Source: Shigella phage ESh17. Taken from it: a stretch of DNA of 64,000 nt. The stretch is taken from sequence record ON528727; one strand, 5' to 3'. A program made the position numbers and the translations under genes. The notes below the pieces were generated by a model, which ran no database searches, had not been told where the DNA came from, and was given only the letters and a program-made list of their open reading frames with translations. Positions 3,423-29,999 of the stretch are shown piece after piece; within the stretch, counting starts at the first letter, position 1; each line of letters begins with the position of its first letter.

Positions 3423-3738
3423 TATTCGTCCGGTCGATGAGACCGGTCTTTCAGAAAAAGAACTTTCAATTAAGAAAGAAAAGGATGAAATTGCAAAGCT
3501 TCTTGACCGCCAAGAAAATGGATTTATTATTGAAAAAATGGTAGAAGAGTTTGGAATGAGTTATCTTGAAGCTACAACAGCATTCTTAGAAGAAAATTCT
3601 ATTCCTGAAACTCAATTTGCTAAATTTATTCCTTCGGGTATAATTGAAAAAATTCAGTCAGAAGCTATTGACGAAAATCTTTTACGTCCTTCTGTTGTTC
3701 GTTGTGAAAAAACTAATACATTAGATTTTCTATTATGA
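3400..3738 (+). CDS. 33: Late transcription coactivator gp33
   Basis: 112 aa from first ATG (track starts at TTG 3391); MTQFSLNDIRPVDETG; overlaps dsbA end as in T4. Confidence 0.88.
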   Translation: MTQFSLNDIRPVDETGLSEKELSIKKEKDEIAKLLDRQENGFIIEKMVEEFGMSYLEATTAFLEENSIPETQFAKFIPSGIIEKIQSEAIDENLLRPSVVRCEKTNTLDFLL

Positions 3739-4388
3739 TTAAACTCCGCATGCCTGCTGGTGGTGAAAGATATATTGATGGTAAATCAGTTTATAAATTA
3801 TACTTAATGATAAAACAACATATGAATGGAAAGTATGATGTAATTAAGTATAATTGGTGCATGCGGGTGTCTGATGCCGCTTATCAAAAGCGAAGGGATA
3901 AGTATTTTTTCCAGAAGTTATCAGAAAAATATAAATTAAAGGAACTTGCTTTAATCTTTATAAGCAATCTGGTTGCTAACCAAGATGCTTGGATTGGTGA
4001 CATCTCTGACGCTGATGCACTTGTGTTTTATCGTGAATATATCGGACGCTTAAAGCAAATTAAATTTAAGTTTGAAGAAGATATTCGCAATATTTACTAT
4101 TTTAGTAAAAAAGTTGAAGTTTCTGCTTTTAAAGAAATCTTTGAGTATAATCCAAAAGTTCAATCAAGTTATATTTTTAAACTACTTCAATCGAATATAA
4201 TTTCGTTTGAGACGTTTATCTTGCTTGATTCGTTTTTAAATATAATCGATAAACATGATGAACAGACTGATAATTTAGTCTGGAATAATTATTCTATAAA
4301 GTTAAAGGCTTATAGAAAAATTTTAAATATTGATTCACAGAAAGCTAAAAGTGTTTTTATTGAAACTGTGAAATCTTGTAAGTATTAA
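3735..4388 (+). CDS. 59: Helicase loader gp59
   Basis: 217 aa MIKLRMPAGGERYIDGKSVYKLY..., ATGA overlap with 33. Confidence 0.93.
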   Translation: MIKLRMPAGGERYIDGKSVYKLYLMIKQHMNGKYDVIKYNWCMRVSDAAYQKRRDKYFFQKLSEKYKLKELALIFISNLVANQDAWIGDISDADALVFYREYIGRLKQIKFKFEEDIRNIYYFSKKVEVSAFKEIFEYNPKVQSSYIFKLLQSNIISFETFILLDSFLNIIDKHDEQTDNLVWNNYSIKLKAYRKILNIDSQKAKSVFIETVKSCKY

Positions 4389-4396
4389 TTGCTTAT

Positions 4397-4404
4397 TATA
4401 AATA
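4397..4404 (+). promoter_or_regulatory. Late promoter TATAAATA upstream of gene 32
   Basis: TATAAATA immediately after gene 59 stop, adjacent to a TTGCTTAT MotA-like box. Confidence 0.5.
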
Positions 4405-4421
4405 GATTATAATTATCTCAC

Positions 4422-4487
4422 TGACCAGCTATGAGGTCATACATCGTCATAGCACCAACTGTTAATTAAATTAAAAAGGAAATAAAA
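4422..4487 (+). promoter_or_regulatory. 32: Gene 32 translational operator: leader pseudoknot plus A/U-rich gp32 binding region
   Basis: Interleaved stems TGACC...CTATGA...GGTCA...TCATAG (4422-4452) then TTAATTAAATTAAAAAGGAAATAAAA before the ATG. Confidence 0.7.
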
Positions 4488-5396
4488 ATGTTTAAACGTA
4501 AATCTACTGCTGAACTCGCTGCACAAATGGCTAAACTGGCTGGAAATAAAGGTGGTTTTTCTTCTGAAGATAAAGGCGAGTGGAAACTGAAACTCGACAA
4601 TGCGGGTAACGGTCAAGCAGTAATTCGTTTTCTTCCGTCTAAAAATGATGAACAAGCACCATTCGCAATTCTTGTAAATCACGGTTTCAAGAAAAACGGT
4701 AAATGGTATATTGAAAACTGTTCATCTACCCACGGTGATTACGATTCTTGTCCAGTATGTCAGTACATCAATAAAAATGATTTGTACAACACTGACAATA
4801 AAGAATACGGTCTTGTTAAACGTAAAACTTCTTACTGGGCTAACATTCTTGTTGTAAAAGACCCAGCTGCTCCAGAAAATGAAGGTAAAGTATTTAAATA
4901 CCGTTTCGGTAAGAAAATCTGGGATAAAATCAATGCAATGATTGCAGTTGATGTTGAAATGGGTGAAACTCCGGTTGATGTAACTTGTCCGTGGGAAGGT
5001 GCTAACTTTGTACTGAAAGTTAAACAAGTTTCTGGTTTTAGTAACTACGACGAATCTAAATTCCTGAATCAATCTGCGATTCCAAACATTGATGATGAAT
5101 CTTTCCAGAAAGAACTGTTCGAACAAATGGTTGACCTTTCTGAAATGACTTCTAAAGATAAATTCAAATCGTTTGAAGAACTGAGCACTAAGTTCAGTCA
5201 AGTTATGGGAACTGCTGCTATGGGTGGTGCCGCAGCAACTGCTGCTAAGAAAGCCGATAAAGTTGCTGATGATTTGGATGCATTTAATGTTGATGACTTC
5301 AAAACAAAAACTGAAGATGATTTTATGAGCTCAAGCTCTGGCAGTTCATCTAGTGCTGATGACACGGACCTGGATGACCTTTTGAATGACCTTTAA
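4488..5396 (+). CDS. 32: Single-stranded DNA-binding protein gp32
   Basis: [24 protein letters not shown]..., acidic Ser/Asp-rich C-terminus, upstream pseudoknot leader. Confidence 0.97.
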
Positions 5397-5815: not shown

Positions 5816-6202
5816 ATGGAAGTTGGAAAAACTTATATCATTAACCCTTTATTTAAAAATGACTTTGCTAACGAGTGCCGTTGCAATGTAATGATGCTAA
5901 ATTTAATAGAGAAGCACGGACCTAGTTTTGTTGTAGATGAAATGGAAAGTGATGATTGTGCTGGTGAATGTGTGGTACGTGTAACTATGGAAGATGGCAC
6001 TAAATACATGGCGGGTGGCCCACTTGAGACGTATTTTGAGATTTACTCTGAAGAATTCAAATACTTTACTGAGGTAACTTTAGAAAAGCCTCAATCCGCT
6101 AATGAAGGTATAGTTTCTGGCGTAACAAAAATTCACTGCATTGTTGACGAAAACAATGTAGATGAAATCATTGAACTTTTGCGAAAAACTTTCAAAAAGT
6201 AG
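5816..6202 (+). CDS. Hypothetical early protein, Cys-rich (frd.x position)
   Basis: 128 aa ORF, SD GAGGA, follows terminator hairpin. Confidence 0.6.
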   Translation: MEVGKTYIINPLFKNDFANECRCNVMMLNLIEKHGPSFVVDEMESDDCAGECVVRVTMEDGTKYMAGGPLETYFEIYSEEFKYFTEVTLEKPQSANEGIVSGVTKIHCIVDENNVDEIIELLRKTFKK

Positions 6203-6231
6203 TTTACAACAGGGTAGTAGTGTGATACTAT
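6202..6231 (+). promoter_or_regulatory. Early promoter with dyad symmetry AGGGTA/TACCCT around the -10
   Basis: GTTTACA, spacer, TACTAT; inverted repeat 6211-6216/6232-6237. Confidence 0.5.
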
Positions 6232-6259
6232 TACCCTATCAACTACTGAGGAGAATAAA

Positions 6260-6502
6260 ATGAGATTACAACGCCAGAGCATCAAAGATTCAGAAGTTAG
6301 AGGTAAATGGTATTTTAATATCATCGGTAAAGATTCTGATCTCGTTGAAAAAGCTGAACATCTTTTACGTGACATGGGATGGGAAGATGAATGCGATGGA
6401 TGTCCTCTTTATGAAGACGGAGAAAGCGCAGGATTTTGGATTTACCATTCTGACGTCGAGCAGTTTAAAGCTGATTGGAAAATTGTGAAAAAGTCTGTTT
6501 GA
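6260..6502 (+). CDS. Hypothetical early protein
   Basis: 80 aa ORF with SD GAGGAG, own early promoter upstream. Confidence 0.6.
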   Translation: MRLQRQSIKDSEVRGKWYFNIIGKDSDLVEKAEHLLRDMGWEDECDGCPLYEDGESAGFWIYHSDVEQFKADWKIVKKSV

Positions 6503-7744: not shown

Positions 7745-8605
7745 ATGAAACAATACCAAGATTTAATTAAAGACATTTTTGAAAATGGTTATGAAACCGA
7801 TGACCGAACAGGCACAGGAACAATTGCTTTGTTCGGTACTAAATTACGCTGGGATTTAACTAAAGGTTTTCCTGCAGTAACAACTAAGAAGCTCGCCTGG
7901 AATGCATGTATTGCTGAGCTTCTATGGTTTATTTCCGGTTCTACCAATGTTAATGATTTACGTCTTCGCACTCATGGTAGTCTTATTCAAGGTAAAACTA
8001 TTTGGGACGATAACTATGAAAACCAGGCTAAAGACCTAGGATATCATAGTGGTGAACTTGGTCCAATTTATGGAAAACAGTGGCGTGATTTTGGCGGTGT
8101 AGACCAAATTATAGAAGTTATTGATCGTATTAAAAAACTGCCAAATGATAGGCGTCAAATTGTTTCTGCATGGAATCCAGCTGAACTTAAATATATGGCA
8201 TTACCGCCTTGTCATATGTTCTATCAATTTAATGTTCGTAACGGATACCTTGACCTCCAGTGGTATCAACGTTCGGTAGATGTTTTCCTCGGTCTTCCAT
8301 TTAATATTGCATCATATGCTACGTTAGTTCATATTGTAGCTAAGATGTGTAATCTTATTCCGGGAGATTTGATATTTTCTGGCGGTAATACTCATATCTA
8401 TATGAATCACGTAGAACAATGTAAAGAAATTTTACGTCGTGAACCTATGGATTTATGCGAATTGCAATTAAAATTTCCAGATGAATTTGATGAATGGGAC
8501 ACAGAGTCGCAGGTATTTTGGTTGAGTCAATTCGCAAAGCCGCATAATTTTGTTCTTAACAACTATGAATCACACCCTCCTATTAAAGGAAAGATGGCGG
8601 TGTAA
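7745..8605 (+). CDS. td: Thymidylate synthase (uninterrupted, no intron)
   Basis: 286 aa [26 protein letters not shown]... with PCH active-site motif; continuous ORF. Confidence 0.97.
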
Positions 8606-8889: not shown

Positions 8890-9169
8890 ATACAAATCCG
8901 ACTTTGATGTTAATATTCACCGTGGTACATTTTGGGGAAATTACGTCGGTAAAGATGCTGGCAGCCGGGAGGCTGCCATTGAATTATTCAAAAAAGATTT
9001 TATACGTCGAATTAAATCCGGAGAAATAACTAAAGCACATTTAGAGCCTTTACGTGGAATGAGGCTAGGATGCACATGTAAACCAAAGCCGTGTCATGGT
9101 GATATAATAGCTCATATAGTTAACCGATTGTTTAAAGACGATTTTCAAGTTGAGGACTTATGCAATTAA
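8843..9169 (+). CDS. Hypothetical protein with CxC...CHG cluster (nrdA.1 position)
   Basis: 108 aa ORF overlapping previous ORF by 47 nt; alternative GTG start at 8882. Confidence 0.5.
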
Positions 9170-11424
9170 TTAATGTTATCAAAAGTAGTGGTGTTTCTCA
9201 GAGCTTTGACCCGCAAAAAATTATTAAAGTTTTATCTTGGGCAGCTGAAGGAACATCAGTAGATCCTTATGAATTATATGAAAACATTAAATCTTATCTC
9301 CGTGATGGAATGACAACTGATGATATTCAGACTATTGTCATTAAGGCTGCTGCGAATTCTATTTCGGTTGAAGAACCTGATTATCAATATGTAGCTGCAC
9401 GCTGTTTAATGTTTGCTCTTCGTAAGCATGTTTACGGGCAGTATGAACCGCGTTCATTTATTGACCATATTTCTTACTGTGTAAATGAAGGTAAATATGA
9501 CCCTGAATTATTGTCAAAATATTCAGCAGAAGAAATTACATTTTTAGAATCAAAAATTAAGCACGAGCGGGATATGGAATTTACTTATTCCGGGGCGATG
9601 CAATTAAAAGAAAAATATCTAGTTAAAGATAAAACCACTGGTCAAATTTATGAAACTCCACAGTTTGCGTTTATGGCTATTGGAATGGCACTGCATCAAG
9701 ATGAACCTGTTGATAGATTAAAACATGTTATCCGTTTTTATGAAGCAGTATCAACCCGACAGATTTCATTGCCAACTCCTATTATGGCTGGTTGTCGTAC
9801 TCCGACTCGACAGTTCAGTTCATGTGTTGTTATTGAGGCAGGAGATTCGTTGAAGTCTATCAATAAGGCTTCCGCTTCAATTGTTGAATATATCTCTAAA
9901 CGCGCTGGAATTGGTATTAATGTTGGTATGATTCGTGCCGAAGGTTCTAAGATTGGCATGGGTGAAGTACGCCATACTGGTGTTATTCCTTTTTGGAAAC
10001 ATTTTCAGACTGCAGTTAAATCATGTTCACAGGGTGGAATTCGTGGCGGCGCTGCTACTGCTTATTATCCTATTTGGCATTTGGAAGTTGAAAATCTTCT
10101 CGTTTTGAAAAATAACAAAGGCGTAGAAGAAAACCGCATCCGTCATATGGATTATGGTGTTCAGTTGAATGATTTGATGATGGAACGATTTGGAAAGAAC
10201 GATTACATTACTTTGTTCAGTCCGCATGAAATGGGTGGCGAGCTTTATTATTCTTATTTTAAAGACCAAGACCGTTTCCGTGAATTATACGAAGCAGCAG
10301 AAAAAGACCCTAATATTCGTAAAAAGCGTATTAAAGCCCGTGAACTATTTGAATTGCTCATGACTGAACGTTCAGGAACAGCAAGGATTTATGTACAGTT
10401 CATTGATAATACGAATAACTATACTCCGTTTATTCGTGAAAAGGCACCTATTCGTCAAAGTAACTTGTGCTGTGAAATTGCTATTCCAACAAATGATGTG
10501 AATAGCCCTGATGCTGAAATTGGGTTGTGTACTCTCTCTGCATTTGTGTTGGATAACTTCGATTGGCAAGACCAAGATAAAATTAATGAATTGGCAGAAG
10601 TTCAAGTTCGTGCTCTTGATAATCTTTTGGATTACCAAGGATATCCAGTTCCTGAAGCAGAAAAAGCTAAAAAGCGTCGAAACCTTGGTGTAGGTGTTAC
10701 TAACTATGCAGCTTGGCTGGCAAGTAACTTTGCTTCTTATGAAGATGCTAACGATTTAACACATGAACTATTTGAGAGATTACAGTATGGACTCATTAAA
10801 GCATCCATTAATCTCGCCAAAGAAAAAGGACCTTGCGAATATTATTCAGACACTCGTTGGTCTCGAGGCGAATTACCTATCGACTGGTACAATAAAAAGA
10901 TTGACCAAATCGCAGCTCCAAAATACGTTTGTGACTGGTCGTCGCTGCGGGAAGACCTTAAGCTCTTTGGCATCCGTAATAGCACATTATCAGCACTTAT
11001 GCCATGTGAGTCATCTTCCCAAGTTTCTAACAGTACAAACGGTATCGAGCCTCCACGTGGACCAGTCTCTGTTAAAGAATCAAAAGAGGGCTCCTTTAAT
11101 CAAGTCGTGCCCAATATTGAGCATAACATAGACCTCTATGATTATACATGGAAATTAGCTAAGAAAGGTAATAAACCTTATCTTACGCAGGTAGCTATTA
11201 TGCTGAAATGGGTTTGTCAATCAGCTTCGGCGAATACATACTATGACCCGCAGATTTTTCCAAAAGGAAAGGTTCCAATGTCAATAATGATTGATGACCT
11301 TTTGTATTTTTGGTATTTTGGCGGAAAAAATTTCTATTATCATAATACCCGTGATGGTTCTGGTACTGATGATTATGAAATAGAAACTCCAAAAGCTGAA
11401 GATTGTTCATCCTGTAAATTATGA
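9160..11424 (+). CDS. nrdA: Aerobic ribonucleotide reductase large subunit
   Basis: 754 aa, ATP-cone N-terminus and class I RNR catalytic core. Confidence 0.97.
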   Translation: MQLINVIKSSGVSQSFDPQKIIKVLSWAAEGTSVDPYELYENIKSYLRDGMTTDDIQTIVIKAAANSISVEEPDYQYVAARCLMFALRKHVYGQYEPRSFIDHISYCVNEGKYDPELLSKYSAEEITFLESKIKHERDMEFTYSGAMQLKEKYLVKDKTTGQIYETPQFAFMAIGMALHQDEPVDRLKHVIRFYEAVSTRQISLPTPIMAGCRTPTRQFSSCVVIEAGDSLKSINKASASIVEYISKRAGIGINVGMIRAEGSKIGMGEVRHTGVIPFWKHFQTAVKSCSQGGIRGGAATAYYPIWHLEVENLLVLKNNKGVEENRIRHMDYGVQLNDLMMERFGKNDYITLFSPHEMGGELYYSYFKDQDRFRELYEAAEKDPNIRKKRIKARELFELLMTERSGTARIYVQFIDNTNNYTPFIREKAPIRQSNLCCEIAIPTNDVNSPDAEIGLCTLSAFVLDNFDWQDQDKINELAEVQVRALDNLLDYQGYPVPEAEKAKKRRNLGVGVTNYAAWLASNFASYEDANDLTHELFERLQYGLIKASINLAKEKGPCEYYSDTRWSRGELPIDWYNKKIDQIAAPKYVCDWSSLREDLKLFGIRNSTLSALMPCESSSQVSNSTNGIEPPRGPVSVKESKEGSFNQVVPNIEHNIDLYDYTWKLAKKGNKPYLTQVAIMLKWVCQSASANTYYDPQIFPKGKVPMSIMIDDLLYFWYFGGKNFYYHNTRDGSGTDDYEIETPKAEDCSSCKL

Positions 11425-11475: not shown

Positions 11476-12654
11476 ATGAGCACAGTTTTTAATACAAATC
11501 CAGTTGATGTTTTAAAAGAACCTATGTTTTTTGGTTCAGGTCTTGGTATTGCGCGTTATGATATTCAACGTCATAAAGTTTTTGAAGATTTAACCGAAAA
11601 GCAATTATCATTTTTCTGGCGTCCTGAAGAAGTAAACTTGATGATGGATGCTGCACAGTTTAATAAGCTTCCTCAGTATCAGAAAAATATTTTTACTAAT
11701 AATCTGAAATATCAATCACTTTTGGATAGCATTCAGGGTCGTGCGCCGTCTGCTGTACTTATGTCATTAATTTCAGACCCAAGCCTTGATACATGGGTTG
11801 CTACGTGGACTTTTAGTGAAACTATTCACAGCCGTTCATATACACATATCATGCGAAATCTTTATACTGATCCATCGAAGGTGTTTGATGAGATTGTATT
11901 AGATGAAGCTATTATGAAACGTGCTGAATCCATTGGACGTTATTATGATGATGTTCTGATTAAAACTCGTTATTGGGAAAACGCTAAAGCTGATATCAAA
12001 TACCAAAAAGAAATTAATGCAGACGAAGACGTTATTGAAGATGCTATTGAGCATGAGACATATTGGAAGCATGAGCTAATGAAATCTCTTTACCTCTGTT
12101 TGCATGTAATCAACGCATTGGAAGCTATTCGTTTTTATGTATCTTTCGCATGTACCTTTAACTTCCATAAAAACATGGAAATCATGGAAGGTAATGCCAA
12201 GATTATGAAGTTCATTGCGCGCGATGAGCAACTTCACCTTAAAGGCACTCAATATATTATTCGTCAGCTTCAATCCGGTACTGATGGTGATGAATGGGTT
12301 AAAATTGCTCAAGAGTGTGAACAAGAAGCAGTTGATATTTTCATGGAAGTTAACCGCCAAGAAAAAGATTGGGCGGTTCATTTATTTAAAGATGGCGATG
12401 TTCCTGGATTAAATACAAATAGCATGTGGAGCTTTATTGATTACTTAACTGTATCTCGTATGAAACAGTGTGGTCTTCCATGCCCAATTACCGATGCTCC
12501 GGTTAAACATCCATATCCTTGGATTCGTGAATATCTTAATTCTGATAATGTTCAATCCGCGCCACAAGAAGTAGAACTGTCATCTTATCTTGTTGCACAG
12601 ATTGATAATGATGTTGATGATAAAGTTATGATGAGTTTTAAAAAATATTTTTAA
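11476..12654 (+). CDS. nrdB: Aerobic ribonucleotide reductase small subunit (uninterrupted)
   Basis: 392 aa MSTVFNTNPVDVLKEPMFFGSG..., continuous ORF. Confidence 0.96.
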   Translation: MSTVFNTNPVDVLKEPMFFGSGLGIARYDIQRHKVFEDLTEKQLSFFWRPEEVNLMMDAAQFNKLPQYQKNIFTNNLKYQSLLDSIQGRAPSAVLMSLISDPSLDTWVATWTFSETIHSRSYTHIMRNLYTDPSKVFDEIVLDEAIMKRAESIGRYYDDVLIKTRYWENAKADIKYQKEINADEDVIEDAIEHETYWKHELMKSLYLCLHVINALEAIRFYVSFACTFNFHKNMEIMEGNAKIMKFIARDEQLHLKGTQYIIRQLQSGTDGDEWVKIAQECEQEAVDIFMEVNRQEKDWAVHLFKDGDVPGLNTNSMWSFIDYLTVSRMKQCGLPCPITDAPVKHPYPWIREYLNSDNVQSAPQEVELSSYLVAQIDNDVDDKVMMSFKKYF

Positions 12655-14272: not shown

Positions 14273-14326
14273 GTTTACAAGTCCCTCGTGTTGTGTTATA
14301 GTAGTCTTACTGACATAACATGAGGA
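14273..14326 (+). repeat. 54 bp promoter/leader cassette, copy 1 (upstream of alc)
   Basis: GTTTACAAGTCCCTCGTGTTGTGTTA...TTACTGACATAACATGAGGA nearly identical to 29620-29673. Confidence 0.7.
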
Positions 14327-14330
14327 CTTT

Positions 14331-17301: not shown

Positions 17302-17577
17302 ATGTTTCCGACTTATTCTAAAATCGTAGAAGTAGTGTTTAGCCAAATTATTGCTAATAATATGTTTGAAAAGCTTGATAACGCAGCCGAGCTTCGAATT
17401 CATGCTCAAGTGACTCATGTATTGAACACTTTGCTTCCAGACCAGGTGGATTCTATTGCAATTACGCTATATCCAGGTTCCGCGCATATCATTGTTGTAT
17501 TCGGTCTTGATGCTGAGTTAGTTATCAAAGGCGACATTCGTTTTGAATCGCAGACAGCAGAATTCAAAGCAATTTAA
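17302..17577 (+). CDS. Hypothetical protein (cd.x cluster)
   Basis: 91 aa ORF, SD GAGG. Confidence 0.55.
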   Translation: MFPTYSKIVEVVFSQIIANNMFEKLDNAAELRIHAQVTHVLNTLLPDQVDSIAITLYPGSAHIIVVFGLDAELVIKGDIRFESQTAEFKAI

Positions 17578-17579
17578 TA

Positions 17580-17609
17580 GTTTACTTTACGGTAGAGTTG
17601 TGATATTAT
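17580..17609 (+). promoter_or_regulatory. Early promoter with dyad symmetry GGTAGAG/CTCTACC
   Basis: GTTTACT, 18 nt, TATTAT; inverted repeat 17591-17597/17612-17618. Confidence 0.5.
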
Positions 17610-17638
17610 AGCTCTACCAAACAAATGAGGAAAACAAA

Positions 17639-19875: not shown

Positions 19876-20124
19876 ATGATTAAACAATTACAACACGCTC
19901 TTGAACTGCAACGAAACGCATGGAATAATGGTCACGAAAACTATGGCGCATCTATTGATGTTGAAGCCGAAGCTCTTGAAATCCTGCGTTATTTTAAACA
20001 TCTGAATCCTGCTCAAACTGCATTAGCTGCTGAGCTTCAGGAAAAAGATGAACTTAAATATGCTAAGCCTCTGGCTTCTGCTGCACGAAAAGCAGTTCGT
20101 CACTTTGTGGTAACACTGAAGTAA
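19876..20124 (+). CDS. rIII: rIII lysis-inhibition accessory protein
   Basis: 82 aa MIKQLQHALELQRNAWNNGHENYG... Confidence 0.88.
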   Translation: MIKQLQHALELQRNAWNNGHENYGASIDVEAEALEILRYFKHLNPAQTALAAELQEKDELKYAKPLASAARKAVRHFVVTLK

Positions 20125-20368
20125 TTTATTGGAGATTCACTGCCTTAGTGTGAGCTAAAATCGAGGAGCCGTCGAACTGTCTGATTAATGATTTGCGAAT
20201 CATTATAGTTTTAAGACCCCGGCAGTTTTACGGTGTACCTCTTGAATGTGAATGATGACGGGTTTATGGTTATCCTGTCGGTAAATATACAAAACCTAAG
20301 TACCCCCTTGAGGGCTTGCGCAGGCAATGCCAATAAGTCCTGCATTTTCATTTAAAAGAGAATTTATA

Positions 20369-20545
20369 ATGGCAAAACAAGTTAAAGCAAAGAAAGCAGT
20401 TGAAAAGAAAGTTGGTGATTCTAAACGCGCTGGCTACAAGCGTGGGTCGAACTCTCGTATCAATCAAACTGTTGAGAAGATCATGCGCCGAGCACGTGCG
20501 GTTCTTCGAGATGATGCTTCTCGTTTTGGTAAGCAGAAAGCATAA
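20369..20545 (+). CDS. Small highly basic hypothetical protein (30.9 position)
   Basis: 58 aa MAKQVKAKKAVEKKVGDSKRAGYKRG..., followed by strong terminator. Confidence 0.5.
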   Translation: MAKQVKAKKAVEKKVGDSKRAGYKRGSNSRINQTVEKIMRRARAVLRDDASRFGKQKA

Positions 20546-20550
20546 GTTGA

Positions 20551-20574
20551 GGACTCCTTCGGGAGTCCTTTTTT
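20551..20574 (+). terminator. Intrinsic terminator after 30.9-position ORF
   Basis: GGACTCC-ttcg-GGAGTCC then TTTTTT. Confidence 0.8.
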
Positions 20575-20598
20575 ATTTTCCAAAGATTGCATAAAGTT

Positions 20599-20628
20599 GT
20601 TTACAGTATAGTTCCTTTGTGATAGTAT
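20599..20628 (+). promoter_or_regulatory. Early promoter
   Basis: GTTTACA, 18 nt, TAGTAT; CCTTTGT 20614-20620 is complementary to ACAAAGG at the SD. Confidence 0.5.
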
Positions 20629-20655
20629 TATCTTACACAAACAAAGGAGAATAAA

Positions 20656-21024
20656 ATGAAAATCAATCTTAACTCATACATCAAAGGTAAAGATCACGAC
20701 GGCTATAAAGCTATCGAAACTAAAGAACTTCAGTGGCACTTATACAAAGAACAATTTGAATTTGTAAGTTGCATGACTCCTGAAGGTCCTTCTGATGATT
20801 TCTCTTGGAAAATAATGTTAACTAACTTTTTTACTGGAGATACATACGAATTGAAAACTTTGATTATTGGTAAAATTCGTTGTGAGACTTATGAAGATAA
20901 AGAAACTGGTTACTCTGAAGATGTTACGTGGTATCAAAATGGTCGTATTACCGCTGACCTCTTGATTGAAAAAATGAAAGCCAAAGGTGAATTAAATTTA
21001 GATAATTGGATTAAAGTTGCATAA
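20656..21024 (+). CDS. Hypothetical protein (30.x cluster)
   Basis: 122 aa ORF, SD AAGGAG, early promoter upstream. Confidence 0.55.
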   Translation: MKINLNSYIKGKDHDGYKAIETKELQWHLYKEQFEFVSCMTPEGPSDDFSWKIMLTNFFTGDTYELKTLIIGKIRCETYEDKETGYSEDVTWYQNGRITADLLIEKMKAKGELNLDNWIKVA

Positions 21025-21028
21025 AATA

Positions 21029-21058
21029 GTTTACTTTGGTACAGGATATGATATTATA
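21029..21058 (+). promoter_or_regulatory. Early promoter with dyad symmetry GGTACAGG/CCTGTACC
   Basis: GTTTACT, 17 nt, TATTAT; 8 bp inverted repeat 21038-21045/21061-21068. Confidence 0.5.
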
Positions 21059-21093
21059 TACCTGTACCGCAATTAAACATCTTGGAGAATAAA

Positions 21094-21459
21094 ATGAACT
21101 ACATCAACTTTGAACGTAAATATGTTTCTAATGGTATTGCAGGTTCTATTGATACTATCTGCCTTTGGAAACATCAAAATGGATCAGTATGCGAAATTGA
21201 ACAGTATATGACTCCTAACTACGTTTATATGCGATTTGAAAATGGAATCACGGTTTCAATCACAATGGAAGGTTCAAACTTCAAAATCGCTCTGGATGAT
21301 GATTTTCGTCAACGTGATTTAGGGACTCATCCTTGCTGGAATGGTGCTAATCGCAAGCTTTTGGTTAAAACTTGGATTCGTCATATTCTGAGTAATAGAG
21401 CTAAACCTGAGCATCTTGAAGCAATCTTTGATGTAGTTCTTAACGAATTTGATATTTAA
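21094..21459 (+). CDS. Hypothetical protein (30.x cluster)
   Basis: First ATG after SD GGAG (track TTG 21082). Confidence 0.55.
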   Translation: MNYINFERKYVSNGIAGSIDTICLWKHQNGSVCEIEQYMTPNYVYMRFENGITVSITMEGSNFKIALDDDFRQRDLGTHPCWNGANRKLLVKTWIRHILSNRAKPEHLEAIFDVVLNEFDI

Positions 21460-21469
21460 AATAAAATGA

Positions 21470-21489
21470 GGGGCTTCGGCCCCTTGCTG
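21470..21489 (+). terminator. Hairpin, weak terminator
   Basis: GGGGC-ttcg-GCCCC then TTGCTG. Confidence 0.45.
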
Positions 21490-21500
21490 AGGAAAATACT

Positions 21501-21788
21501 ATGTTTATGACTACTTATTTTGATACTCGTAAAAACTTCTGTGAAGTGGTTTTCTCTAAGGCGCCTAAAGACCTTCCTGCTCATTTGCAACCTACCAGCG
21601 AATCGATTAAAAACTACGTTAATGTAGTATGTCCTTTAGAGTTCCGTACTGTAAATGGGCGCGATACTTTAGCTATCACTAAACTCAATCGTGAAATTGA
21701 CATTGACCCTTCAATTGCGCGCGAAATTAATATCTCTGATATTGGCGGCGGTAATGTTAAATCGCACGGTTTTCAGATGAGGTTCTAA
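21501..21788 (+). CDS. Hypothetical protein (30.x cluster)
   Basis: 95 aa ORF, SD GAGGA. Confidence 0.55.
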   Translation: MFMTTYFDTRKNFCEVVFSKAPKDLPAHLQPTSESIKNYVNVVCPLEFRTVNGRDTLAITKLNREIDIDPSIAREINISDIGGGNVKSHGFQMRF

Positions 21789-21985
21789 TGAAATTCTTTT
21801 TAGGTCAAACTGTTGAATTAAAGGGAGTTGGTATACCTGGATTAATTTCTAAGGTTCTACCTCCATTTAAATGGAGTGGTATTCAAATAAAAGAGGCTTA
21901 TATTGTTTCCTGGGTAGATGGAAATGAAGACCTTCGTATGGGCGATGAATTATCTCCTATTTACGGATTAAAGGAATTAGTATGA
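21788..21985 (+). CDS. Hypothetical protein (30.x cluster)
   Basis: 65 aa ORF, TAATG coupling. Confidence 0.5.
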   Translation: MKFFLGQTVELKGVGIPGLISKVLPPFKWSGIQIKEAYIVSWVDGNEDLRMGDELSPIYGLKELV

Positions 21986-22188
21986 ATATAATTAATAAGA
22001 TTTTTGGAATTCAGTACATTAAGGTCACATATAAAGTAACAGATAAAAATCCATATACTGATGAACACGAAGAACCACGAGTTGAGTCTATTATATTAGA
22101 AAAGGACCCTAACTGGCCAGTTGAATTTCGTCTTCCTTGCTATGGTCATTGGGCTGATGTTGAAATTATAAGCATTGAAAATGTCTGA
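21982..22188 (+). CDS. Hypothetical protein (30.x cluster)
   Basis: 68 aa ORF, ATGA coupling. Confidence 0.5.
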   Translation: MNIINKIFGIQYIKVTYKVTDKNPYTDEHEEPRVESIILEKDPNWPVEFRLPCYGHWADVEIISIENV

Positions 22189-22639
22189 GTTAGAGATTAG
22201 AAGCAATTTTAGGTGGCCATCATGTGCATTAAGTAATTTCGCCCAATGGCCTTTCGTTATGGATGGTATTCAATTTGGAGGTCTTGAAGGATTCCTCCAA
22301 GGGTGCAAGGTGAAAAATGTTGAACAACAACGTCGTATATTTGGGTTATCCGGGCTTGCCGCCCAACAAGCTGGAAGGTCTTATGCTAGAGCTCAGGACC
22401 GTGGGACCCTCTTCTGGCTTGGAGTTCCATTTTCAAGATACTCCCCAGCGTGGAAAGAATTATACACAAATGCATATTTTGAAGCAGCGATCCAAAATAG
22501 GGGCTTTCGCGATGCATTACAAGCCTCGAAAGGAAAAGTTTTGAAGCACAGCATGGCTAGTGGTCTAACAAAAGATGATACAATACTAACCGAAGCTGAA
22601 TTTATTGATGTGTTAAACCTATTAAGAGACTCTCTATGA
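22181..22639 (+). CDS. NADAR/YbiA-like (DUF1768) protein
   Basis: LSNFAQWPFVMDGIQFGGLEGFLQ resembles the YbiA motif FSNFAAWPIKVDG...HYFQ; first ATG used (track TTG 22175); locally GC-richer by eye. Confidence 0.55.
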   Translation: MSELEIRSNFRWPSCALSNFAQWPFVMDGIQFGGLEGFLQGCKVKNVEQQRRIFGLSGLAAQQAGRSYARAQDRGTLFWLGVPFSRYSPAWKELYTNAYFEAAIQNRGFRDALQASKGKVLKHSMASGLTKDDTILTEAEFIDVLNLLRDSL

Positions 22640-23499
22640 AGCCTACTATTTTAACTGATATTGATGGAGTATGTTTAAGCTGGCAATCAGGTCTTCCTTA
22701 TTTTGCTCAGAAATATAATCTTCCGTTAGAACATATTTTAAAAATGATCCAAGATGAGAAATTTATTTCTCCAGGTAAACTATTTAATTGTGATGAAGAA
22801 CTTGGCGTCAAGTTAATTGAAAAATACAATCGTTCAGATTTTATTCGTTACTTGTCTCCGTATAAAGATGCTCTGTGTGTAATTAACAAATTAAAAGAAG
22901 ATTATAATTTTGTAGCTGTTACAGCATTGGGTGATTCTATTGACGCTCTGTTGAATCGTCAATTTAATTTGAATGCTCTTTTTCCTGGTGCCTTCTCAGA
23001 AGTAATGATGTGTGGTCATGATTCTTCAAAAGAAGAGTTATTCAAAAAGGCAAAAGAGAAATATAACGTAATTTGTTATATTGACGATCTTGCTCACCAC
23101 TGCGATCATGCGAGTGAAATATTAAATGTTCCGGTTTATTGGATGGCTCGAGGAGAGCGTGACAATATTCCAAAAACTGCGCAGCGAGTTTATACATGGA
23201 ATGATGTAGAAAATAAGCTTTTTTCACCGAAGGAAAATAAAGAAAGTTTTGATAGTGAAAAAGCTATAAAAGATGTAATTGAGAAGATGGTTAAAAACGA
23301 TTCTTTTCGTTGGAACACTACCTGGAGAACTCCTGGATTTAATCCGTATAATCCATATTATACACATCCATATAATCCATATTATACACACCCGTATCAT
23401 ATGAATCCATTCCATACGTGGAGTTATACTAAGCCTGGTGATGCAGGGTATTTTAATAGATTTACTAGTGGTGATAATATTTTCCAAGGAGCATTCTAA
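22636..23499 (+). CDS. HAD-superfamily phosphatase/nucleotidase-like protein with C-terminal NPYYTHPY repeats
   Basis: N-terminal ILTDIDGV (HAD motif I); C-terminal tandem Pro/Tyr repeats. Confidence 0.6.
   Translation: MKPTILTDIDGVCLSWQSGLPYFAQKYNLPLEHILKMIQDEKFISPGKLFNCDEELGVKLIEKYNRSDFIRYLSPYKDALCVINKLKEDYNFVAVTALGDSIDALLNRQFNLNALFPGAFSEVMMCGHDSSKEELFKKAKEKYNVICYIDDLAHHCDHASEILNVPVYWMARGERDNIPKTAQRVYTWNDVENKLFSPKENKESFDSEKAIKDVIEKMVKNDSFRWNTTWRTPGFNPYNPYYTHPYNPYYTHPYHMNPFHTWSYTKPGDAGYFNRFTSGDNIFQGAF
23350..23397 (+). repeat. 24 bp tandem repeat, 2 copies, encoding NPYYTHPY
   Basis: aatccatattatacacatccatat followed by aatccatattatacacacccgtat, in frame within the HAD-like ORF. Confidence 0.7.
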
Positions 23500-25228: not shown

Positions 25229-25413
25229 AAGCTTACTTAGAAACAATTGTCATTGCTCAAAAAGAAGGTGGAGATGTTTCTACTTCTGTATCACAAGTCA
25301 TTCTCGAATTTGTAGATGCATATGCTTATAATAAATTCACAGAAACATTTGATGCCTATGAAAAAGGTCCAAAGTTTGAAATATATCGTACTCTCTTACC
25401 ACTAGATTACTAA
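25225..25413 (+). CDS. Hypothetical small protein between ligase and alt
   Basis: 62 aa ORF, ATGA overlap with ligase, followed by hairpin. Confidence 0.5.
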   Translation: MKAYLETIVIAQKEGGDVSTSVSQVILEFVDAYAYNKFTETFDAYEKGPKFEIYRTLLPLDY

Positions 25414-25434
25414 AGGCCTTCGGGCCTTTAATTT
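25414..25434 (+). terminator. Hairpin/terminator before alt
   Basis: AGGCC-ttcg-GGCCT then TTAATTTT. Confidence 0.5.
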
Positions 25435-25442: not shown

Positions 25443-25465
25443 GAATAAACACTAGAGAGGATATG

Positions 25466-27559
25466 ATGGAACTCATTACAGAATTATTTGACGAAGATAC
25501 TACTCTTCCGATTACAAACTTAAATCCAAAGAAGAAAATACCGCAAATTTTTTCAGTTCATGTTGATGACGCAATTGAACAACCAGGCTTTCGTTTATGT
25601 ACCTATACATCTGGAGGTGATACTAATCGCGATTTAAAGATGGGCGATAAAATGATGCATATTGTTCCTTTTACATTAACTGCTAAAGGTTCAATTGCTA
25701 AATTAAAAGGTCTCGGTCCAAGCCCAATTAATTACATCAATTCAGTTTTTACTGTTGCAATGCAAACGATGCGTCAGTATAAAATTGATGCCTGCATGCT
25801 CCGTATTCTTAAGTCTAAAACTGCTGGTCAAGCTCGTCAAATTCAACTTATTGCTGATAGACTTATCCGCAGTCGTTCAGGTGGCAGATACGTCCTTCTT
25901 AAGGAACTCTGGGATTACGATAAAAAGTATGCATATATTCTTATACATCGCAAAAATGTATCACTAGAAGACATTCCAGGAGTTCCGGAAATTAGTACCG
26001 AGCTCTTTACTAAAGTTGAATCGAAGGTCGGTGATGTTTATATCAATAAAGATACTGGAGCTCAAGTAACTAAAAATGAGGCAATTGCAGCATCTATTGC
26101 GCAAGAAAATGATAAACGTTCTGACCAAGCTGTAATCGTTAAAGTTAAAATTTCACGTAGAGCAATTGCGCAAAGTCAATCATTGGAATCTTCTAGATTT
26201 GAAAGTGAATTATTCCAGAAGTATGAATCTACCGCAGCTAATTTCAATAAACCTGCTACCGCTCCTTTAATTCCCGAAGCAGAAGAAATGAAGCTTGGAA
26301 TTAATTCGTTAGCTTCTAAAACTAAGGCAGCAAAAATTATTGCCGAAGGAACTGCGAATGAACTTCACTATGACTATAAATTCTTTTCAAAAAGTGAGGT
26401 TGATGAAGTTTCAGAAAAAATTAAAGATGTAATTTTTAACGCAATCAAAAATGAACCAACTACTTCAATAAAATGTTTAGAGAAATACGCAGCAGCTGTT
26501 AATAAATTCTTTGAAGAATATAAAGATAATTGGCTTGATAAACATAATAAAACTCGTAAAGGGCAACCAGATGAAGTCTGGGGAGAAATAACTAAAAATG
26601 CATGGAATGCAGCAAAAACTAAATTCCTCAAACGAATGATTTATAGCTTTTCTGGAATTGGTGCTGGTCCAATGATTGATATTACTATTGCCCGTGATGG
26701 TTCTAAATATACTCCATCACAAAAGCGAGGTATTAGAGAATATTGTGGTTCAGGATATACAGACATTAATAATCTTCTTTTAGGTCGTTACAATCCAGAA
26801 CGATATGATGTAATGAGTGAAAAAGAAATTGAATCTGCTATAAATAATTTAGATTCAGCTTTTGAAAATGGTGACCGCATACCGGAAGGCATTACAGTTT
26901 ATCGTGCTCAAAGTATGACTGCTCCTATATACGAAGCACTAGTTAAAAATAAAGTGTTCTATTTCAGAAATTTTGTATCTACTTCTTTAACTCCTATCAT
27001 TTTTGGACGTTTTGGAATTACACATGCTGGTATTGGTCTTTTAGAACCAGAAGCTCGCAATGAATTAACAGTTGATAAAAATGAAGAAGGAATAACTATT
27101 AATCCAAACGAAATAAGAGCGTATAAAGAAAATCCTGAATACGTTAAAGTTCAAATAGGATGGGCAATTGATGGAGCTCATAAAGTTAATGTTGTATATC
27201 CAGGAAGTCTCGGAATAGCAACAGAAGCCGAAGTTATTCTACCGCGCGGATTGATGGTCAAAGTTAATAAAATAACTGATGCTTCTAATAATGACGGAAC
27301 CACGTCTAATAATACAAAACTCATTCAAGCTGAAGTTATGACCACCGAAGAACTCACCGAATCGGTAATTTATGACGGTGACCGTTTAATGGAAACCGGC
27401 GAAGTAGTTGCAATGACAGGTGATATTGAAATAGAAGACAGAGTTGACTTTGCATCATTTGTTTCATCAAATGTTAAACAGAAAGTAGAATCATCTCTTG
27501 GAATTATTGCGTCTTGCATAGATATTACAAACATGCCTTACAAGTTCGTTCAAGGATAA
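25466..27559 (+). CDS. alt: Alt ADP-ribosyltransferase (head-packaged, injected)
   Basis: 697 aa MELITELFD..., ART motifs TVYRAQS, FVSTSL, EAEVILPRG; late promoter upstream. Confidence 0.9.
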   Translation: MELITELFDEDTTLPITNLNPKKKIPQIFSVHVDDAIEQPGFRLCTYTSGGDTNRDLKMGDKMMHIVPFTLTAKGSIAKLKGLGPSPINYINSVFTVAMQTMRQYKIDACMLRILKSKTAGQARQIQLIADRLIRSRSGGRYVLLKELWDYDKKYAYILIHRKNVSLEDIPGVPEISTELFTKVESKVGDVYINKDTGAQVTKNEAIAASIAQENDKRSDQAVIVKVKISRRAIAQSQSLESSRFESELFQKYESTAANFNKPATAPLIPEAEEMKLGINSLASKTKAAKIIAEGTANELHYDYKFFSKSEVDEVSEKIKDVIFNAIKNEPTTSIKCLEKYAAAVNKFFEEYKDNWLDKHNKTRKGQPDEVWGEITKNAWNAAKTKFLKRMIYSFSGIGAGPMIDITIARDGSKYTPSQKRGIREYCGSGYTDINNLLLGRYNPERYDVMSEKEIESAINNLDSAFENGDRIPEGITVYRAQSMTAPIYEALVKNKVFYFRNFVSTSLTPIIFGRFGITHAGIGLLEPEARNELTVDKNEEGITINPNEIRAYKENPEYVKVQIGWAIDGAHKVNVVYPGSLGIATEAEVILPRGLMVKVNKITDASNNDGTTSNNTKLIQAEVMTTEELTESVIYDGDRLMETGEVVAMTGDIEIEDRVDFASFVSSNVKQKVESSLGIIASCIDITNMPYKFVQG

Positions 27560-27562
27560 ATC

Positions 27563-29620
27563 ATGGAACTTATTACAGAATTATTTGACGGCGCTTCGGC
27601 GCCGGTTGTTAACTTAAATCCTAAGCATAAAATACCACAAATTTTTGCTATTCAAGCCGGTGAAGAAAGCGTGCTTCCTGGATTTAGATTTTGTACATAC
27701 ACCTCTGGCGGTGATACGAATAAAAACGTTAAGCCAGGCGATAAAATGATGCATATCGTAATGATAGGTGTCAACGAGAAATTATCGCTGGTTAAGCTTA
27801 GAAACTTGGGTGGAAATCCAATTGGCGTCATTAATGCTGTTTTTGATACTGCTCTTCAAACAATGAAACAGTATAAAATTGACGCATGCCTATTCCGCGT
27901 ACTAAAAAGTAAAACAAATGGCGCTGCTCGTCAAATGCAAGTTATTGCTGACCGTTTAGTACGTACTAAAGGAGCAGGTCGATATGTTCTTTTAAAGGAA
28001 ATCTGGGACTATGATAAAAAGTATGCATATATTATGGTTTACCGTAAAAATGCCAATTTAGAAGACATTCCAGGTGTACCTCCTATTTCAACTGAGTTAT
28101 TCACAAAAGTTGAATCGAAGGTCGGTGATGTTTATGTAGATGTTAAAACAGGTAATGCTGTTCCTAAAGCTGTCGCTGTTGCTGCTTCTATTGCTTTAGA
28201 AAATGATAAGCGCACGGATCAAGCTGTTATTCAAAAAACTAAAATTAGTCGTCGATTAGCAGCACAAGCTCAATATTCTACTGTCGATGCTTCACTTCAG
28301 GGTGATAGCTTCGCTGCTAAGAAATATCAAGAGTTTGAATCTAAAGTTCCGGTATATAAAGCAGAAGGTCCGATGAACTCTGGCGTTATCCAGATTGGTT
28401 CAAACTTCAGCAAAGGAGCTATCGGTGGTATGAGGAGTGCTTCTCGTTTTAAATCTAGCGATTATGAACTAGAAAACTTCCGAAATCATATTGCATTGGC
28501 CCATGCACGTTTACGTGATCCATCTATCAAGTTGCAGAGCGATATAACATATCAAGGTTCTCAAGAATATTTAAAGAATAAAGAATTCTTTGATTATAAA
28601 ACTGATAAAATTTTAAGCGATCTTGCTGACATTAATATTTCTAATAGCTTTGATGTTATTAAGAAAATTATTAATGATTTAGTTAAAGGTTCTAAAGCTA
28701 CGCCAGATGAAAAGACAGCTATTATTCAATTTGTCATGAATGGCATTTATAAATTGATTAATGAATCTGCTGCCCAGGCATATGAATATGCAAGCACCGA
28801 AGTAACTCCAAAAGGATTAACTCAGGCTGAGTCTGATGTAATTGAAGATTATTGTGCAGATTCATATGTTGAAATGAACTCGTTCCTCTTGGGTAAACCA
28901 GATTCTACCCGTGAAGAATACATGGAACGAGCTATTAAACACATCGAGACAATGGATTCTGCATTCGCTAAAGGTTCAGTTCTTCCTCCAGGAACTACGC
29001 TTTATCGTGGACAAGAAGTTACTTTTAAAACTTTACGTCATAATATTGAAAACAAAATGTTCTATTTCAAGAACTTTGTATCCACGTCGCTTAAACCAAA
29101 CATCTTCGGTGAGCATGGTAAAAACTATATGGCTCTAGATGATTCCGGTGCAGTATTTTCTGGTGAAGGAGAAGGTTCTGTTGATGCTGAAGATTTAATG
29201 CATATGGGTAGTCACTCTGCTTATGCGAATGAAGACGCTGAAACTAGCGTAGGTATGGTAATTAAAGGGGCTGAGCGAATCAAAGTTATCGTTCCAGGTC
29301 ATTTATCAGGATTTCCATCAGAAGCTGAAGTTATTTTACCGCGTGGAATTTTGCTGAAGATTAATAAAGTGAGCACGTACATGATGAAAGAAACTGCTTA
29401 TAATAAGTATCTAATCGAAGGCACAATCGTTCCTCCTTCTGAACAATTAGAAGAATCGGTATATGATGGCGATCATCTAATGGAAACTGGTGAAGTTCGT
29501 CCAATGGCTGGGTTTAATCAATTCCTTGTAGAAGAATCAAAAGAAGAGGAAAACGAAGTTTCTCAAATCTTGGCTTCTTTGGTTAACATCAACGGAATGT
29601 CTAAAAAGTTCAAGATGTAG
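27563..29620 (+). CDS. Alt-like ADP-ribosyltransferase paralogue
   Basis: 685 aa; same N-terminus MELITELFD and same ART motifs (TLYRGQE, FVSTSL, EAEVILPRG), divergent middle region. Confidence 0.8.
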   Translation: MELITELFDGASAPVVNLNPKHKIPQIFAIQAGEESVLPGFRFCTYTSGGDTNKNVKPGDKMMHIVMIGVNEKLSLVKLRNLGGNPIGVINAVFDTALQTMKQYKIDACLFRVLKSKTNGAARQMQVIADRLVRTKGAGRYVLLKEIWDYDKKYAYIMVYRKNANLEDIPGVPPISTELFTKVESKVGDVYVDVKTGNAVPKAVAVAASIALENDKRTDQAVIQKTKISRRLAAQAQYSTVDASLQGDSFAAKKYQEFESKVPVYKAEGPMNSGVIQIGSNFSKGAIGGMRSASRFKSSDYELENFRNHIALAHARLRDPSIKLQSDITYQGSQEYLKNKEFFDYKTDKILSDLADINISNSFDVIKKIINDLVKGSKATPDEKTAIIQFVMNGIYKLINESAAQAYEYASTEVTPKGLTQAESDVIEDYCADSYVEMNSFLLGKPDSTREEYMERAIKHIETMDSAFAKGSVLPPGTTLYRGQEVTFKTLRHNIENKMFYFKNFVSTSLKPNIFGEHGKNYMALDDSGAVFSGEGEGSVDAEDLMHMGSHSAYANEDAETSVGMVIKGAERIKVIVPGHLSGFPSEAEVILPRGILLKINKVSTYMMKETAYNKYLIEGTIVPPSEQLEESVYDGDHLMETGEVRPMAGFNQFLVEESKEEENEVSQILASLVNINGMSKKFKM

Positions 29621-29673
29621 TTTACAAGTCCCTCGTGTTGTGTTACAATAGTTTTACTGACATAACATGAGGA
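29620..29673 (+). repeat. 54 bp promoter/leader cassette, copy 2 (after alt paralogue)
   Basis: Same sequence as 14273-14326 with a few substitutions; -10 here is TACAAT. Confidence 0.7.
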
Positions 29674-29680
29674 ACACAAA

Positions 29681-29971: not shown

Positions 29972-29977
29972 AAATAT

Positions 29978-29995
29978 GGGGACCGAAAGGTCCCC
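29978..29995. terminator. Bidirectional terminator between convergent 96-aa ORF and gene 54
   Basis: GGGGACC-gaaa-GGTCCCC with A/T-rich flanks on both sides. Confidence 0.7.
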
Positions 29996-29999
29996 ATTG

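Follow-up and report, generated by a model that had tools for sequence, protein, structure and literature searches.

Most of the strong early promoters of Shigella phage ESh17, in the 64,000-nucleotide stretch analysed here (sequence record ON528727; hereafter the window), lie inside a hairpin that spans their -10 element, and these hairpins are genuine and non-random. A preliminary description of the window had reported at least three early promoters with perfect 6-8 bp inverted repeats across the -10 region, each with arms of its own; all three repeats are confirmed, though the stems are longer than described (12-13 bp once G.U pairs are counted) and the feature recurs well beyond those three. 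The hairpins are PeSL-type cassettes (promoter-early stem-loop, an early promoter plus stem-loop), a kind already described in T4-type phages, so that the feature as such is not new. From their geometry and strand bias, an RNA-level role as insulator or gate in T-even phages is the reading we favour, with some reserve.

Sequence comparison places the window in a T4-type phage of the genus Tequatrovirus, and positions 20000-23000 are 99% identical to the minus strand of the Shigella phage ESh18 record; more than 900 T4-related genomes match this region. By comparison with T4 (NC_000866) the first ~30 kb form the early region, with rnh, 32, frd, td and nrdAB first, then alc, pseT, cd, 31 and rIII, and 30.x, 30 and alt last. 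In a scan with a simple promoter score, the + strand of the window yields nine strong early promoters (1641, 2169, 5470, 6203, 14274, 17581, 20600, 21030 and 29621), mostly within the frd.x, cd.x, 30.x and alt.x clusters, and the T4 early strand yields 44, 37 of which are followed by a Shine-Dalgarno (SD) sequence and a start codon.

Hairpins around the -10 element

The three promoters of the preliminary description (sites 1-3) are all present in T4 with identical hairpins (129917, 133330 and 146142, respectively). Their predicted promoter features are a GTTTAC/TTTACW -35 element, a 16-17-nt spacer, a TG-extended TAYTAT -10 element and A-rich upstream sequence. All are intergenic, with the stop codon of the upstream open reading frame (ORF; TAA at 21022-21024 for site 1, 17575-17577 for site 2 and 6200-6202 for site 3) ending 0-6 nt before the -35 element and an SD sequence and ATG at most 40 nt downstream. 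In each case the 5’ arm lies in the -35/-10 spacer, the 3’ arm begins 0-3 nt past the -10 element and the top of the stem is built from the extended -10 and -10 sequence, while at sites 1 and 3 an outer helix additionally joins the -35 region to downstream sequence.

Site 1, upstream of the gene 30.7 orthologue (21029-21057, + strand, as are all window promoters and promoter hairpins described below), is identical to T4 promoter 129917 and comprises GTTTAC at 21029-21034 (-35; hexamer TTTACT at 21030-21035), a 16-nt spacer, TG at 21049-21050 and the -10 hexamer TATTAT at 21052-21057; -35 and -10 signals of gene 30.7 are annotated in the TuIa record. Its hairpin (21035-21072) is formed around the perfect core GGTACAGG (21038-21045)/CCTGTACC (21061-21068), extended by AUAU/AUAU with one bulge, so that the loop falls in the -10 box, and the outer helix pairs GUUUA (21029-21033) with UAAAC (21074-21078). 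The fold reaches -19.2 kcal/mol (z = -5.5; 0/200 dinucleotide shuffles), and the SD sequence (GGAG, 21084-21087) and ATG (21094-21096) of the 30.7 orthologue (together 21084-21096) lie outside it. Site 2, upstream of the cd.2 orthologue (17580-17609; equivalent to T4 Pe133295/133330), has GTTTAC at 17580-17585 and TATTAT at 17604-17609. Its hairpin (17591-17618) is a 12-bp stem, GGUAGAGUUGUG/UAUAGCUCUACC, which includes G.U pairs and the perfect arms GGTAGAG (17591-17597)/CTCTACC (17612-17618), with the loop AUAU in the -10 box. Site 3, upstream of an ORF at 6260-6502 (6202-6231; the same promoter at T4 146142), has GTTTAC at 6202-6207, the G of which also ends the upstream stop codon TAG, and TACTAT at 6226-6231. 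The hairpin here (6199-6246; -19.2 kcal/mol, z = -2.6 relative to dinucleotide shuffles) consists of an inner 12-bp stem (6211-6222/6226-6237), with the perfect arms AGGGTA (6211-6216)/TACCCT (6232-6237) and the whole -10 hexamer within its 3’ strand, and an outer helix (6199-6204/6241-6246). A repeat search recovered sites 2 and 3 as imperfect arms of 14 and 11 nt and omitted the 8-bp pair of site 1, which was confirmed by direct reading, by script and by folding.

The preliminary description had left it to be settled whether such repeats are more frequent than chance would give in AT-rich intergenic DNA. As the main control, chimeras were made by joining the 5’ half of each promoter (-35, spacer and -10) to the 3’ half of every other one, which preserves composition, the conserved promoter core and position-specific biases. 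The mean minimum free energy (MFE) of the cognate T4 promoters (n = 37) is -13.4 kcal/mol versus -8.87 ± 0.40 kcal/mol for permuted halves (0/2000 permutations), and that of the window promoters (n = 8) is -15.7 versus -10.45 ± 1.23 kcal/mol (1/2000 permutations). Early-type promoters taken from the loci fetched from IMG/VR, mostly T4-like (155 after dereplication), behave in the same way (-11.9 versus -8.6 kcal/mol for chimeras, z = -11.6), with 37% of cognate promoters versus 7% of chimeras folding to -14 kcal/mol or below, and the separation persists in the 90 promoters that lie outside the search-pattern selection (z = -9.7). Perfect Watson-Crick repeats of 6 bp or more, with the 5’ arm in the spacer and the 3’ arm no more than 25 nt past the -10 element, occur at 17 of the 37 T4 promoters versus 8.6% of non-cognate arm pairs and 6.5% of shuffled arms (binomial P = 2e-9); seven T4 promoters have repeats of at least 8 bp, versus 0.4% expected, and in the window the count is 4/8 versus 14% for non-cognate pairs (P = 0.018). 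In the window and in T4, then, the inverted repeats exceed chance. The number of base pairs enclosing the -10 element in the MFE structures did not separate cognate promoters from chimeras, because any 69-mer will pair somewhere, whereas energy and run length did separate them.

Hairpins of this kind might in principle be a by-product of AT-rich intergenic DNA and a partly self-complementary promoter core, carrying no selected function. The conserved core (GTGA/TACTAT, TGATATTATA) does account for 3-5 pairs on its own, a run of 8 consecutive pairs is reached in about 20% of chimeras, and some promoters lack the hairpin. However, the chimera, permutation and shuffle controls are widely exceeded in three independent data sets, compensatory changes are seen, and arms are kept while the neighbouring untranslated region (UTR) diverges, so that we regard a chance origin as effectively refuted.

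Within one genome nearly every promoter has arm sequences of its own, and among the IMG/VR promoters many different arms surround one GTGATACTAT core. The proposal that the architecture and not the arm sequence is conserved thus holds between promoters of one genome, and it holds as well in the orthologue examples, for which single-protein searches in IMG/VR returned 5-14 loci each, mostly near-identical. One of these is site 3, where the window has AGGGTAGTAGT-gtga-TACTATTACCCT and loci L025, L027 and L028 have AGGCTATGGTA-gtga-TACTATAGCCT: AGGGTA/TACCCT has become AGGCTA/TAGCCT, so that C replaces G in the 5’ arm and G replaces C in the 3’ arm, and both arms differ by one base in length. Likewise, promoters preceding a gene that begins atgaaacgttg carry the arms AGGGT/ACCCT, GGGCT/AGCCC or TAGATAGGGTA/TACCCTATCTA, and the 13-bp stems of the T4 paralogues 57989 and 20611 show two T-A to C-G double changes between them, along with two changes compatible with wobble pairing. 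Three single-sided variants, picked by eye, keep a wobble pair on the sense strand: the site 1 3’ arm in L007 (CCTGTACC to CTTGTACC, giving G.U), the cd.2 orthologue (GGTAGAG to GGTGGAG, A-U to G.U) and TATAGACC to TATGGACC. Arms therefore co-vary across promoters.

Dyad symmetry centred on the -10 element is typical of repressor operators, and the shut-off of early promoters is described in a T4 review as incompletely understood, so that an operator for a dimeric DNA-binding regulator such as an early-promoter shut-off factor might be considered. The arms are, however, unrelated from promoter to promoter, and register and loop size vary; no single protein could read all of them, which excludes a single operator and leaves an operator of any kind with a very small probability. 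The suggestion of a structural role in place of one sequence-specific operator is upheld on the same ground.

The loop itself can be drawn from the promoter. In many GTGATACTAT promoters (loci L030-L141) the extended -10 provides a GUGA loop of the GNRA tetraloop pattern, and the top of the stem has the entire -10 hexamer as its 3’ strand; other promoters have the register shifted by 6 nt and AUAC as the loop. A third class of early promoter, seen at T4 50972, 2457 and 167085 (L002-L005) and absent from the window, has a small hairpin confined to the spacer (CCACA-AGGA-TGTGG) that abuts the -10 element rather than bracketing it.

Strand, transcript and level of action

The sense strand is favoured. 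Its G.U pairs give it an advantage of 3.3 kcal/mol over the antisense strand, in T4 as in the window, versus 1.4 kcal/mol for the chimera baseline, and it is the more stable strand at 8/8 window promoters. The asymmetry is clearest at site 2 (sense -16.3 kcal/mol, z = -3.8; antisense -9.6 kcal/mol, z = -1.9), while at sites 1 and 3 the antisense fold is almost as stable. The position of the arms points the same way. With transcription taken to start ~7 nt past the -10 element (21064-21066 at site 1), the 5’ arm, always in the spacer, is upstream of the expected +1, so that the promoter’s own transcript would lack it and the hairpin should exist only in read-through RNA initiated at upstream promoters. 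It is known that early transcripts of T4 are extended through such junctions to give delayed-early and middle RNA. Of the options named in the preliminary description (a cruciform, RNA-structure-based control or a candidate processing site in read-through RNA), RNA structure in read-through transcripts is the level best supported by geometry and sense bias, and the cruciform is the weakest.

An element acting in DNA, as a cruciform or single-stranded hairpin in replication or recombination, would make the cassettes exchange hotspots, as in the PeSL mini-circle model, or modulators of promoter melting. The cassettes do lie exactly at replacement and indel junctions (see below), the antisense folds of sites 1 and 3 are nearly as good as the sense folds, and PeSL mini-circles were detected in RB49 and phi1, with a stem-loop-binding recombination protein speculated upon (Arbiol 2010, PMC2839356). 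Against this, many stems need G.U pairs, which become C.A mismatches on the other strand, and arms of 6-13 bp with loops of 3-15 nt are generally unfavourable to cruciform extrusion, as are the G.T pairs and the much weaker antisense hairpin at site 2. The location of the junctions is explained equally well by the conserved promoter sequence alone. Moreover, the homology for recombination comes from the conserved -35, -10 and SD sequences and not from the promoter-specific arms, so that a DNA-level role leaves the compensatory evolution of the arms unexplained, and we consider it unlikely.

In the RNA-level reading that we favour, a strong early (sigma-70) promoter is packed into an intergenic gap of ~60 nt and nested in a stem-loop. 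Transcription would start in or after the 3’ arm, so that RNA from the promoter itself would lack the 5’ arm and stay open, and RNA arriving from upstream early or middle promoters would contain both arms and fold. The folded hairpin would then serve as an intercistronic insulator that marks where the upstream cistron ends, whether it attenuates or pauses read-through or blocks 3’-to-5’ decay. For a subset of promoters that does not include sites 1-3, it may also hide the downstream SD sequence in read-through RNA, so that the gene would be translated only from its own transcript, and the conserved cassettes may act as junctions for the exchange of gene modules between phages. If the hairpin does form only in read-through RNA, dozens of tightly packed small genes, each with its own promoter, could be insulated from one another without giving up space to terminators, and the clean swapping of modules between phages at the cassettes would be explained.

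A stricter alternative is that the hairpins are Rho-independent terminators or attenuators that stop RNA polymerase arriving from upstream, so that the small genes are transcribed only from their own promoters. It draws on the position of the hairpin directly after the upstream stop codon, on a lacZ assay in which a phi1 PeSL stem-loop acted as a strong terminator, and on a partly complementary distribution with canonical terminators. At sites 1-3, though, the combination of GC-rich hairpin and U-tract that defines an intrinsic terminator is absent: the stems are followed by GCAATTAA, AAACAAAT and ATCAACTA, which contain no T-run. Nor does a T-run follow any other of the -10-spanning stems, and these stems and their loops are AT-rich. 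On the lack of a T-run a classical terminator was rejected. A terminator scan of 14-31 kb reported none of the -10-spanning stems and found three textbook terminators elsewhere (20549-20570, 25411-25430 and 29976-29997), all of them combining a GC-rich stem with a tetraloop (UUCG at the first two) and a T-run. The first stands directly upstream of promoter 20600 (20549-20578 with its T-run, + strand), and the third, which separates the alt.-3 orthologue from gene 54, is bidirectional. Together with the extension of T4 early transcripts through such junctions, these observations make strict termination an improbable function. Stems spanning the -10 element of early promoters should accordingly be annotated neither as terminators nor as operators.

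The relation to true terminators can be followed across T4. Promoters with a canonical terminator upstream (n = 6) gain -0.8 kcal/mol over their chimeras, versus -5.4 kcal/mol for the others (n = 31), in a comparison in which the perfect-stem terminator detector probably misses degenerate terminators. In the window, promoter 2169 has no co-directional gene upstream and no -10-spanning hairpin.

A subclass of hairpins covers the SD sequence. Partition-function folding of read-through RNA and of the promoter’s own transcript, with the SD called closed when its probability of being unpaired is <0.3 and open when it is >0.6, predicts, for 9/37 T4 and 4/8 window promoters, an SD that changes from closed in the read-through RNA to open in the promoter’s own. 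For about a quarter of T4 early genes, then, only RNA from their own promoter is predicted to be translatable. At the promoter upstream of the alc orthologue (14274-14329) the 3’ arm of a long hairpin (-24.4 kcal/mol) covers the SD (GAGGA), the unpaired probability of which rises from 0.01 in read-through RNA to 0.72 in the own transcript. Similarly, at the promoter upstream of the 30.8-like gene (20600-20649) the partner of the spacer sequence TTCCTTTGT is ACAAAGGAG, within which the SD lies (0.00 versus 0.70). The promoter upstream of the alt.-3 orthologue (29621-29674) has a near-copy of the 14274 cassette, with a hairpin over the SD (-20.8 kcal/mol), and its SD is closed in both RNAs. These two cassettes (14274-14330 and 29621-29675) are nearly identical over ~50 nt (TTTACAAGTCCCTCGTGTTGTGT...ACATAACATGAGGA) and correspond to the T4 pair 136335 and 123092; a 3’ strand covering the SD is also found at T4 166806, 62796, 53942, 13185 and 8217.

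The arrangement recalls the T4 genes e, soc, 49 and I-TevI, where a late promoter inside a hairpin gates translation, as established by experiment for e and I-TevI, and only the short transcript is translated (PMC3014915). As in those genes, the 5’ strand of the helix lies upstream of the proximal start, so that the long transcript folds and the proximal one does not; at every site examined here the transcript of the proximal promoter should lack the 5’ strand, with the start placed from the -10 element. The systems differ in that the proximal promoter is late there and early here. Extended to the whole genome, this would give each small early gene an RNA switch that discriminates by transcript origin, open in its own RNA and closed in read-through RNA, a proposal that we put forward only tentatively, as distinctly less probable than insulation or gating in general. 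If it were true, the same cistron would be translated, processed or degraded differently in immediate-early and in delayed-early or middle RNA, and shut-off of its own promoter would bring the expression of a gene to an end despite continuing read-through. The logic of e, soc, 49 and I-TevI, four cases with late promoters, would then apply to dozens of early promoters as well, and the T-even PeSL stems would gain a function beyond recombination.

Several results weigh against an insulating or gating role in RNA. First, the SD is not sequestered at sites 1-3, where its probability of being unpaired in read-through RNA is 0.75, 0.32 and 0.79, respectively (0.67 in the own transcript of site 1); since it is accessible, translational gating cannot be the role there. 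Secondly, the lack of a T-run and the different character of the true terminators make efficient intrinsic termination unlikely, and the complementarity between terminators and hairpins in T4 is only a trend (Mann-Whitney p = 0.096). For sites 1-3 the RNA-level roles that remain would thus be to attenuate or pause read-through and to shield the 3’ end of the upstream cistron. Thirdly, both strands of site 3 fold equally well. The comparative evidence is also mixed. At site 1 the arms are conserved in sequence in 14 related IMG/VR loci, in ~10 of which the UTR between stem and SD has diverged; there is constraint and no covariation, which fits selection on sequence as well as on structure. In pooled pairs of related promoters, pairing is kept in 15/25 double and 60/183 single changes, a mildly positive count that is confounded by shifts in stem register and by the non-independence of pairs. 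Finally, the lacZ assay, the sole functional test, was made on a phi1 stem of the GC-rich G(n)/C(n) type and not on an AT-rich T-even stem, and a literature search found no 3’-end, start-site or structure-probing data for T4.

PeSL cassettes and gene-module junctions

PeSLs were defined in RB49 and phi1 as an early promoter and a stem-loop between a stop codon and the next SD sequence, with the stem-loop mostly between the -35 and -10 elements or overlapping the latter; they are repeated ~50 times, mostly before ORFans and at indel or replacement junctions (Arbiol 2010, PMC2839356). In that study the stem-loop of phi1 PeSL211/210 lowered expression of a downstream lacZ about as well as rrnB T1, and the discussion describes T-even analogues at T4 early promoters with weaker, AT-rich stems of variable size. 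The T-even elements were first seen at IP loci by Repoila et al. 1994, as that work is cited in PMC2839356, and -10-spanning stems are present at the T4 promoters within the IP-gene regions (65798, 66497 and 73938). PeSLs were later extended to the T4/PST pair, with the consensus TTTACW-N17-TAYWAT and variable stems (Comeau 2014, PMC4122927), the stems being placed ‘just upstream’ of the promoter in the T4/PST figure legend (PMC4122927).

The hairpins of the window share with PeSLs the packing of early promoter and stem-loop between the stop codon of a small gene and the next SD, the location of the stem-loop in the spacer or across the -10 element, a match to the T4/PST consensus and the occurrence of many copies, mostly before small genes of unknown function, at junctions of insertion, deletion or replacement between close relatives. 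The promoter, the stem-loop, the intergenic setting, the repetition (with nine strong copies in the window and ~37 in T4) and the association with junctions are thus all found. There are differences as well. Stems upstream of the promoter, as in T4/PST, fit the terminator-plus-promoter arrangement seen here at 20549-20628, and the -10-spanning type was drawn for phi1 and RB49 as GC-rich G(n)/C(n), whereas the stems described here are AT-rich and promoter-specific, with G.U pairs and no T-run following them. What is added here to the published cassettes is quantitative support, the longer stems with G.U pairs, the point that the hairpin should form only in read-through RNA, the division into hairpins that do and do not cover the SD, and a cassette-flanked gene replacement in the window. 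The T4 reviews consulted make no mention of hairpins embedded in early promoters, and the literature search found no relevant later work on PeSLs and no functional test of T-even stems.

Other known hairpin families compare less closely, and an Rfam 15 scan of the whole window gave no family at gathering score. Among the REP-like and intercistronic stabiliser hairpins of E. coli operons, REP is a conserved sequence family and is not combined with a promoter. What the hairpins share with such barriers is a position within polycistronic RNA, where the stem-loop follows immediately on a stop codon and lacks a U-tract; they differ in that each stem here has its own sequence and overlaps a promoter. 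With canonical terminators the hairpins share the position at the end of a cistron and differ in having no T-run, GC-rich stem or stable tetraloop.

The hairpins lie at module junctions. Between 20540 and 21110, comparison with T4 shows two near-identical blocks flanking a divergent gene: the first comprises the terminator and the promoter-20600 cassette up to the first codons, and the second extends from GTTTAC at 21029 onwards. The gene in between (20656-21024, flanked by cassettes at 20549-20655 and 21029-21093) is a divergent allele of T4 30.8, with only 39% protein identity to gp30.8, and has the look of a module cleanly replaced between two regulatory cassettes, as judged from the alignment. 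Many relatives match the window only from 21013 onwards. At site 3, T4 joins the 6203 cassette, identical through ...TACCCTATCAA, to another downstream gene, and some relatives have cd.2 or the 6260 gene without any cassette.

Neighbouring features of the early region

The strong early-type promoter at 1641-1700 (+ strand; conserved at T4 151290) runs antisense within the 5’ part of gene 34, which is on the minus strand. It has its own CTGGAG/CTCCAG stem and is followed by neither an SD sequence nor an ORF.

The td (7745-8605, 286 aa) and nrdB (11476-12654, 392 aa) genes of the window are uninterrupted ORFs, so that the T4 group I introns and I-TevI/III are apparently absent from the phage. 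The gaps around nrdA (9160-11424) and around 59/32 (3735-5396) seemingly leave no room for mobE or segG. Further downstream, where T4 has alt and the truncated alt.-1 and alt.-2, the window contains two tandem full-length ORFs (25463-27559, 698 aa, and 27563-29620, 685 aa), which possibly represent an intact alt duplication, their identity as alt being taken from position and size only.

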